This document shows, piece by piece, positions 54,101 through 60,046 of a DNA stretch of 64,000 nucleotides. The DNA is from Octopus vulgaris. Taxonomy: Eukaryota. The position numbers and the translations under genes were made by a program. Position 1 is the first letter of the stretch; each line of letters opens with the position of its first letter. The notes below the pieces were generated by a model that was given only the letters and a program-made list of their open reading frames with translations, was not told where the DNA came from and did not search any database. The stretch lies in contig OX597842.1 in the NCBI GenBank assembly GCA_951406725.2, positions 14,446,001-14,510,000 on the forward strand, read 5' to 3'.

Positions 54101-57100
54101 CGGCCAGTCCTCTACCTTAATTTTGCAAATGCTTTTGACAATGTGGATCATGGCATGACATGCCACAAACTGCGTGACCTCGGGATAGCTGGAAAACTTG
54201 GAGTGTGGTTACATGACTTCCTGAAAGATAGGAGCAAGGCAGTAGTGGCTAATGGAGCCACTTCTATGAACACACAAATTGTGAGCGGTGTTTCACAGGG
54301 CACTGTCTTGGGACCACTGCTTTTTATAGTGGCCCTCTCATATATGCACTCAAATTCCCGGATAACCACTCTGGCAAGCTATGCAGATGATACTAAAGTC
54401 TCACAGAAAATACAGAACCCCAGCGATGTCGCACACCTGCAGCAGTAGTTGAACTCGAATTTACAGATGGGCTGAGGATAATAATATGCAGTTTAATGAT
54501 GAGAAATTCCTGGCCCTGCGCTACCAGCATCCAAAACTGAATATTAAACCTACAGGGTCCACCGGTCCACAGGGAATTTAAATCCCAGAGCCTAAGTCAG
54601 TGAGGGACCGTGGTATCGACATGAGTGGGGATATCTCTTTCCAAGTGCACATTACCAGGATGGCGATCAAGTGCAGACGACTGGCTGGATGGATCCTAAT
54701 AACATTCAGAACCAGAGATAAGGAAACCATGATGGTCCTCTAGCGGACATTCGTCCTCAGCCGCCTGGATTAGTGCCCACAGCTATGGTCACCCATCAGT
54801 GTGAGATTAACAGTAGATCTTGAAGCAATCCAGAGAAGATTCACAAAGAAGATCGTCTCTTTGCAACAGCTCAGCTACTGGGAAAGGTTGAAACAGCTAA
54901 GACTCTACTCCCTGGAGAGAAGACGGGAGAGGTGTGCAGTAATATATATCTGGAAGATCCTGGAAGGAATTGTGCCAAATTTTGGCATTGAAAGCTACAC
55001 GAATGCCAGAACGGGACGACACTGCAAAAGATCCCAGCAATGCTATCACGCGTCAGGACCAGTTACTGCAATGCAATGATGTTGCGAAATGCGGCACCCG
55101 GGGGCAGCCCAGCAAGCCAATTTGATTAAAGTGGAGGAAGTAGGCACACCCGGCCGGATTACTTGCGTAATGTGGTTCTTCGTTGCCAGGTTCATTTCGA
55201 CTCCTCACATGGCATCATTACACCAATGTCTTCGTTGACAAATCCGCACTGTATGCAGTTCTTCGTCGTCTGACCTCAAACCAACTGTTCACATCACCCA
55301 ACTCTCATCTCTAACTCTTCCCATTACCAAACTTTTATCAGATTTTTAATTACCCACAAGGGTCTAACATAGAGGGACAATACGCACATTTGGGGACAAT
55401 TAACATATGAAAGAACAGAAGAAGAAGAAGAAGAAGAAGAAGAAGAAGAAGAAGAAGAAGAAGAAGAAGAAGAAGCAGAAGAAGAAGAAGAAAAAGAAGA
55501 AGAAGAAAAGAAGAAGAAGAAGAAGAAATAGAAGAAGAAGAAGAAGAAGAAGAAGAAGAAGAAGAAAAAAAGAAATAGAAGAAGAAGAAGAAGAAGAAGA
55601 AGAAGAAGAAAAGAAATAGAAGAAGAAGAAGAAGAAGAAGAAAATGAGGATGAGCAGGACGATAAGATGCAGAAGAAGAGAAAGACATACAAGAATATTC
55701 GGACAAAAACAACATCAAATCAACAACATTAAAACAATAAGTAGAGGAAGTAGAAGAAGAAAACGGAGACGAAAAATATGTAGATGGAGATAATAACTAA
55801 TATGATGAAACAGAAGAGCAAGAAAAGGATGAAAAGAAGAAGACGAAGAAAAAGAGGAGGAGTGAGAAGAGGGAAGAGGAAGGAAGTGGAAGAGTAGGTG
55901 ATGAAGATGAAATGGAAGTAGAAGTTAAAGAAGAAGAAGAAGGAGGTGAAAAATAAGTAGGAGAAGAAAAGAAGAAGAAAGGAAAAAGAATAAGTACAAA
56001 AAGAATTTTATAAATGAGTTTTATAAATGACGTAGTTCTAAATGTACAAATGCCATCGGTGATTGAAGCATGTTATTTAGCGTAAACACCAAGACATAAT
56101 ATCCATACCGAATGATAGACACAGGTGAATAGGGATTTGCATGTTTATAGTGATGATGAACATGGTGTTGATGCTGATGATGTTGGTGGTGAAGTTTCTC
56201 TTGTCGATGATGATGAACATATAATACCGTGTGAAAGGAAAATGACGAGAGTGAGCGAAATTACAAACATGGAAATATATCGGCAATGATATACTATAAA
56301 TGAAGATTGATTTAACTTACCAGCTCATATAAATTGGTCAAATATTGGAAGGTTTCTGGTTTGATTTCAGTGACATTATTACCGCCCAAAACCCTGGAAC
56401 ATAAAATTGAGTTAAGATGAAACGTTATGGAACAGGTTTTTAGCAATACATAACATATTTCGAGTAAGGAATTAGACTATGGAAATCATGAAGAGTTGAT
56501 TACGGTTCTGTTGAAATTGATAATGACGATGATGATGATGTTCATGTTGGGTAACGAACTGCGGTAGCATATGGTAATGAATAAAGTTGGTGATAAAGCT
56601 AACTTATTGTGGTAGTGTGTGGTAAAGAATGAAGTTAATGATAAAGGTAATGATGAGCCTGACAATATTGAAAACTGAGAGAAAGAAAAGTGTTGCGGAT
56701 AATAATGTCGGTAATGATGATGGGAACGAAGAAATTGATAATGAATGAGAAGTAAATGAAAATCGGTAAGAAGGAGAATAAGAAAAAGTAGAAGAAAAAT
56801 ATGAAGATGACGAAAAAGTAGACGAAATGGAATATAAATAAGAGCGATTAGAAATGAAGAACGACGAAGAAGAAGAAAAGTAGAGCAGGAAGATACGAAA
56901 TAGAAGAAGAAGAGAAAGAAAAAGAAGACAGTTAGCACAAAATCAACATCAAATCAAAAACATTAATAACAATAATTAGAGGAAGAAGACGAAGTAAACG
57001 GAGAGAAAAGAATATGCAGATGGAGAAGATAAGTAATATGATGAAACGAAGAAAAGGAAAATGATGAAAGGAAGAAGACGATGACAGATGCAAAGTAGAA

Positions 57101-60046: not shown

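Follow-up and report, generated by a model that had tools for sequence, protein, structure and literature searches.

Group 3 of Ritschard et al. 2019 (PMC6408891) is an octopus-specific expansion of adhesion GPCRs that, in the parts of that paper drawn on here, have a GPS and a class B 7TM region, lie in tandem clusters and, in no more than 5 of 22 models, carry LRRs; positive selection is given there at the level of branches, and none of the expanded groups yielded selected sites. The gene considered here runs through a window of 64,000 nucleotides of Octopus vulgaris DNA (assembly GCA_951406725.2, contig OX597842.1, here called C29, positions 14,446,001 to 14,510,000 of the forward strand), to which all coordinates without a prefix refer. 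Its last 7TM exon is 57% identical (E=9e-37) to the listed group 3 member A0A0L8GYU7, and this close homology suggests that the gene is akin to that group. Both have a GPS, a class B 7TM region, some LRRs, tandem clustering and positive selection, whereas exon cassettes of one LRR each and hypervariability of the concave face are not described in those parts of the paper (PMC6408891). Existing gene models miss most cassette exons, since only 3 of the 160 cassette peptides found here occur verbatim in the retrieved proteins, and this would explain the earlier null result of the site test.

Two further systems invite comparison. The ROCO genes of Ectocarpus, according to the sections of Zambounis et al. 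used here (PMC3341825), encode one repeat per exon, vary in exon number, include dead cassettes and have M8-selected sites on the concave face, for which pathogen recognition was proposed. The octopus genes likewise encode one LRR per symmetrical exon, vary in the number of these exons and have predicted concave sites with omega above 1; the ROCO proteins, however, are intracellular GTPases of brown algae, whereas the octopus repeats form the extracellular arm of an animal GPCR, and we infer that the likeness is one of convergence. In the agnathan VLR system, according to a review (PMC13428168), the LRR modules have a concave face that is hypervariable, and their cassettes are incomplete germline donors which cytidine deaminases assemble somatically. 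The octopus modules share this variable face but are spliced exons of complete germline genes with a 7TM region and are without a deaminase signature; in place of an incomplete germline gene with non-exonic donors, 144 of the 160 cassettes have AG/GT splice sites and an open frame and lie in line within genes. The octopus family works like ROCO exon shuffling and resembles the VLRs, and is a member of neither. Vertebrate ADGRA receptors (GPR124/125) have the domain order LRR, HRM, GAIN, 7TM, which the octopus gene, with its HRM-like and GAIN-like parts, would share. They form a small, conserved set in which the number of LRRs is fixed and an Ig domain is present; the octopus receptor instead has a Ly6-like domain, its stalk module is repeated, and its LRR array is variable and evolves fast.

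Anatomy of the receptor gene

Each cassette exon codes for a single LRR of an octopus adhesion GPCR with the order LRR-LRRCT-Ly6-like-HRM-like-GPS-7TM. Downstream of the LRR exons follow a capping LRR, the LRRCT, the Ly6-like domain, three stalk modules, a GAIN-like region, the GPS and a secretin-type 7TM region. The last, capping LRR exon is at 32365..32436 (minus strand; 23 residues), and a similar exon ends the array in other genes of the family. The LRR C-terminal cap exon, with the motif CGCHLP, was located at 26006..26175 (minus strand) by tblastn with P0004, P0016 and P0029, its edges being placed from splice candidates, and a Cys-rich, putatively Ly6/uPAR-like domain is encoded at 20175..23269 (minus strand) by two exons (23178-23269 and 20175-20358) whose Pfam match to UPAR_LY6_2 (E=0.0054) falls under the cut-off. 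The stalk exons (88..18336, minus strand) are tandem copies of one module with an HRM-like part (E=0.04-0.07, also under the cut-off) and another part that we take to be SEA-like. The copies of this module (25-10870 and 18126-18336) are about 78-88% identical, and the relatives P0004 and P0008 have one copy. The third copy extends past the window start and is followed by the GAIN-like, GPS (C29:14417155) and 7TM exons.

The GPS motif ahead of TM1 is matched on the gene's own exon at C29:14417155 (PF01825, E=3.5e-15), with the HL-T motif of the cleavage site present, and the final exon matches the secretin-type 7TM family (PF00002, E=1.4e-11), the TM exons being ordered on the same strand. Given the match to PF00002, an identity as a class A LRR GPCR of the GRL101/LGR type is ruled out; no PF00001 (rhodopsin-type 7TM) match lies near the gene among the best 150 of 152 matches, with 147 of 7999 candidates scored. 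The GAIN assignment draws on relative P0029, whose match to PF16489 (E=0.0018) is under the cut-off; the single exon of the gene itself that was tested gave no match, and homologous exons are present. LRR, GPS and 7TM are annotated in one protein in the relatives P0004, P0007 and P0016. Genome-wide there are 65 GPS matches, 15 of them within 3 Mb at C29 13.2-16.2 Mb, and the single-LRR exons of this cluster are absent among the matches listed in a genome search with Pfam LRR_8. A signal-peptide/LRRNT exon was found in eight sister genes and not for this copy; an assembly gap of 100 N (C29:14515446-14515545) lies 3.3 kb upstream of the gene's first LRR exon (14512166), and it is in this gap that the missing exon probably lies. 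In the LRRNT exons of the eight sister genes (for example C29:14580778-14580960) the x3 residue of the first strand has five states, and pN/pS is about 1.0 in the LRRNT but 0.34 in the signal peptide.

Beside the exons compared below, the window contains intact 72-nt LRR exons at 49229..49300 and 38696..38767 (both minus strand; 23 residues each), a tandem copy of the latter at 37310..37381 (minus strand) whose acceptor is TG, not AG, and which is likely skipped, and a dead LRR cassette at 50656..50727 (minus strand) with neither splice site and with a dead counterpart in the neighbouring gene. The last of these is also kept, splice-dead, at C29:14606718 and at C9:114155253, 114159623 and 114381256, and its presence in at least four genes indicates that its death preceded those duplications. 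Defective cassettes make up 3 of the 8 in view for this gene. Compared with O. sinensis P0001, the C-terminal tail encoded by the last 7TM exon is shifted by +1 at an A-rich tract (about C29:14406749-14406790); the shift ends the tail early and is either real or an assembly indel. Given these defects and the 73-nt exon described below, this copy of the gene may be decaying or locally mis-assembled. Elsewhere in the family, a cassette at C29:14588299 has a 1-nt deletion (71 nt), those at C29:14113042 and 14133562 have an in-frame 3-nt deletion (69 nt), and five cassettes in two genes (C29:14620251-14624616 and 13893242-13895475) are identical in exon DNA, through either very recent duplication or conversion. 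The window also holds reverse-transcriptase-like ORF fragments inside an intron at 45322-46556 (plus strand), presumably a retroelement; intronic fragments at 32992-34123 (minus strand) that we take to be a Mariner/Tc1-like transposase; presumably LINE-like reverse-transcriptase fragments at 52828-54448, which have a 298-bp inverted repeat (52828-53124 and 54111-54408, 95%); and a very high-copy short repeat at 58316-58466, with a read depth thousands-fold above its surroundings, that is probably a SINE.

Substitution at the five x codons

The initial annotation had drawn attention to a pair of exons that seemed to differ almost only at residues of the concave face. One of them (59975..60046, minus strand) is an intact one-LRR exon of 72 nt and 23 residues with AG/GT sites and phase-2 introns on both sides; its match to Pfam LRR_8 (E=6.9e-6) is just under the cut-off, and a protein search, with six candidates and none scored, returned no annotated model matching its frame. 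The other (56321..56393, minus strand) is a cassette of 73 nt, with one additional G ahead of the GT donor; if spliced to the next intact cassettes it would cause a frameshift and a stop 36 residues on, and it is either a pseudo-exon or an assembly indel. Both are carried by a duplicated exon-plus-intron unit (55503..60768, no strand assigned) whose two parts, 55503-57141 and 59183-60768, are 89% identical across 1652 columns, and the read contigs of four runs across 55900-60400 are mostly repeats. Realignment of 59975-60046 with 56322-56393 gave 10 differences in 72 nt, confined to six codons that are all changed nonsynonymously (N/V, W/G, R/G, L/V, K/Y, Y/E), exactly as described, and the central 14 residues proved identical at the DNA level in all 14 codons. 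The assignment of five of the six changed codons to x positions of LxxLxLxxN was likewise correct, L/V being a core position: the motif is read across the exon junction as L21-x22-x23-L-x1-L2-x3-x4-N5, the Leu codon between x23 and x1 being split by the intron after its second base. Nine of the differences fall within the 15 x nucleotides and one within the other 57 nt, while in the flanking introns 22 of 468 aligned bases are changed upstream (4.7%) and 16 of 492 downstream (3.3%); for this pair, chosen post hoc, the probability of at least 9 changes in 15 x nucleotides at 4% is 1e-9.

As an example the pair is flawed. The term sister exons is loose, since for each exon the nearest upstream or downstream flank (within 110-160 nt) comes as often from a cassette of another gene. 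For the second pair that had been named, 38696/37310, the change of YLY to NLN is present, but it is accompanied by two off-face codons (A/R, T/A) and two synonymous nucleotides, with seven differences overall. Each of the two pairs thus includes one defective cassette, a point that the initial annotation had missed, and is weak alone.

The larger sample comprised 1.06 Mb over 12 gene regions, some of them incompletely covered, in which a position-weight scan identified the 160 cassettes, 144 intact and 16 defective, at 3 to 34 per region. Cassette exons are symmetrical, with 72 nt between phase-2 introns. The codon model was applied to 128 of the 144 intact exons, whose introns can be aligned and which group into 23 clusters; the 16 intact exons without an alignable partner and all 16 defective cassettes were omitted, and the 73-nt exon at 56321 entered neither the codon model nor the pair counts. 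With an MG94-type model implemented in our own script, and trees from introns alone or from introns plus exon, omega was 7.1-7.7 at the five x codons, 0.53-0.65 in the framework and 1.7-1.8 at three loop codons, at a synonymous rate 0.75-1.2 times that of the introns. Omega at the x codons exceeded 1 in all four settings, with and without double-nucleotide changes (likelihood-ratio p from 2e-48 to 3e-30, that is <1e-29), and in every one of the 14 clusters of at least four members its interval excluded values of 1 or less. By site, omega was 12.6 at x3, 8.5 at x5, 7.5 at x8, 5.8 at x7 and 3.5 at x2, about 2 at x10 and x12, and 0.02-0.5 at the core L, N, F and I; outside these seven x sites no interval lay above 1. 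Changes were concentrated at the first and second codon positions (for x5, 33, 23 and 3 at the three positions, against 3.8 for an intron column). The x positions are under selection for amino-acid change and the framework is under purifying selection, so that the proposal of diversifying selection holds in a larger sample, in which dN/dS at precisely these sites is far in excess of 1.

Counts that make no use of trees were made on 60 independent live pairs, identical and near-identical pairs (flank divergence <0.5%) being omitted. Changes affected 207 of 900 nt at x codons (23.0%), 94 of 2700 in the framework (3.5%) and 744 of 27150 in the introns (2.7%); substitutions are about 8.5 times as dense in the x codons as in the flanking introns, and the framework is near the intron level. 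In splice-dead pairs the corresponding figures were 2 of 60 (3.3%), 2 of 180 (1.1%) and 48 of 1806 (2.7%), and live and dead pairs differ at x with a Fisher p of 7e-5, in a control of only four dead pairs. Inside the x codons pN/pS was 4.2 (p=2.5e-9), and trees built from the nearest flanks gave omega of 7.9 and 9.2. Exon synonymous divergence in the pair set is about 6%, twice that of the introns, which implies that conversion inflates the intron-calibrated rates and that 4 is the safer, lower figure. Among the 144 intact cassettes of the 12 gene regions there are 119 distinct five-residue face signatures.

The position of these sites was mapped on an AlphaFold model of an O. bimaculoides relative, P0012 (14-sequence alignment, mean pLDDT 74.5, mostly >85 in the LRR part), which has beta strands at x3-L4-x5 in each repeat and an LRR solenoid resembling those of LRIG1 and LGR4/5. 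The two fastest sites, x3 and x5, lie on the LRR beta strand of this model as alternating strand residues, and x7-x8 come after it. In LRR proteins alternating strand residues point to the concave side; given this textbook geometry and the secondary structure of the relative, the five x codons are predicted to line the concave binding face. The intron lies inside the beta strand, so that a strand receives x2-x3 from one exon and x5, x7 and x8 from the next, and a new surface would consequently result whenever an exon is added, removed or skipped.

Source of cassette diversity

Trees of the upstream and downstream introns reject one another in 15 of 16 AU tests (p<0.05), a result that can also arise from poorly resolved trees or non-homologous flanks, and four-gamete incompatibility is in excess across the exon relative to within one side (p=0.018). 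Taken together, the discordant intron trees and the incompatibility across the exon suggest that the cassettes likely recombine. In this germline comparison no deaminase signature was seen, C/T changes accounting for 20 of 207 changes at x sites vs 226 of 744 in introns. For pairs with at least three differences, both variants of a 5' block were present verbatim in another cassette in 0 of 25 cases, and both variants of a 3' block in 3 of 14, within the 1.06 Mb sampled. Given that there is no C/T bias and that 5' variants are mostly not copied from another sampled cassette, point change plus selection is taken as the main source of variation; as main sources, deaminase editing is ruled out by the C/T count at x sites and templated copying by the unmatched 5' blocks. 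For one family gene of O. bimaculoides, the RefSeq isoforms P0050, P0049, P0051 and P0015, which are annotation models, differ in the single LRR that is skipped in frame: each lacks one 24-residue repeat at the same junction, and this suggests exon skipping as a second layer of diversity.

Given the variable codons at both exon ends, the discordant flank trees, the 10 changes at the synonymous first exon base (3.8 expected) and the raised exon synonymous divergence, it is conceivable that the pattern is a neutral artefact, in which gene conversion homogenises the exon centre or a mutation hotspot lies near the splice sites, so that the exon ends drift or mutate more quickly, in the absence of any selection on binding. 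This is very unlikely and largely refuted: the core codons L6, N9 and L1, which are interleaved with the x codons, are conserved, the third positions of x5 change at the neutral rate, the splice-adjacent intron bases are not raised, the dead cassettes, in a small control, have no excess, and the framework nucleotides do not fall below intron divergence. The interleaved conserved codons, the flat splice-adjacent introns and the dead cassettes rule out a splice-site hotspot in particular. It is also possible that part of the difference within the focal pair built up under relaxed selection, one exon being dead, or stems from faulty assembly, as the 73-nt exon and the further defects of the same gene copy might indicate. 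This too is improbable, if less so, for decay would scatter changes, yet 9 of 10 sit in 15 of 72 nt; furthermore, the 56321 exon differs from each of 14 close paralogues at 7-11 x nucleotides, like live exons, which makes its changes likely older than any death, and the family-wide result omits it. The least credible of these scenarios is a somatic diversification like that of the VLRs, in which cassettes, including dead ones, would act as donors rewriting an expressed gene. Many dispersed, near-identical cassettes with identical cores and the persistence of dead cassettes in several genes are consistent with it, and a similar idea is put forward for the Ectocarpus ROCO genes in the sections of that study used here (PMC3341825), but the 144 cassettes have their own splice sites and are ordered inside genes, C/T changes at x sites are few, and the blocks with both variants in another cassette are as scarce as given above.

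Proposed mechanism, ligands and role

In the reading that we prefer with good confidence, these exons are interchangeable LRR cassettes of an adhesion GPCR whose five predicted face codons change amino acid at about seven times the neutral rate, likely through selection for new specificities against changing foreign ligands. In the germline, unequal crossing-over and gene conversion between exon-intron units that are nearly identical would add, remove and mix cassettes, and selection would favour those with new binding specificities. In adhesion GPCRs the signal of a ligand on the arm passes via the GAIN/GPS cleavage site to the 7TM region, and a ligand on the LRR arm would be relayed to the 7TM part by the same route. 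There is perhaps an even chance that the ligands are microbial or parasite non-self; an environmental or prey cue would be a distinctly less probable class, as would a self or neuronal wiring code. A wider proposal, advanced tentatively, is that of a germline repertoire resembling the VLRs and acting on G-protein signalling, with dozens of receptors diversified by cassette turnover, recombination and exon skipping and an arms race with microbes or parasites as the driver.

The same selection may, however, act on a surface that is not immune and serves either as a chemotactile sensor or in the recognition of self or of neurons, as a code for arm wiring or self-avoidance, a reading that we regard as plausible, if somewhat short of probable. 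The nearest folds belong to LRR receptors of the cell surface whose ligands are endogenous (LRIG1, LGR4/5), but omega values near 7, together with births and deaths of cassettes, are typical of antagonistic coevolution. Expression of group 3 is given for the axial nerve cord, suckers and skin in the parts of Ritschard et al. drawn on here, whereas in C. minor it is mostly in gills and skin (PMC6408891). For three O. bimaculoides group 3 genes of Scaffold40771 the axial nerve cord accounts for 0.37-0.52 of the signal; given this nerve-cord-dominated expression, wiring or sensing fits as well as immunity, although blood cells may be present in nerve-cord samples.

In the literature searched, with subscription journals and bioRxiv supplements outside its scope, no published account of LRR exon cassettes or of concave-face selection in octopus adhesion GPCRs was found; the expansion of these receptors is known, and their mode of diversification was not found in print. 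As a rule, adhesion GPCRs are conserved and serve development or mechanosensation, and the immune and arm-sensing receptors of cephalopods are poorly known. Here, the evolution of an octopus adhesion GPCR family resembles that of plant resistance genes or lamprey VLRs, which makes the family a specific candidate for cephalopod receptors of variable recognition, with five residues per repeat singled out.
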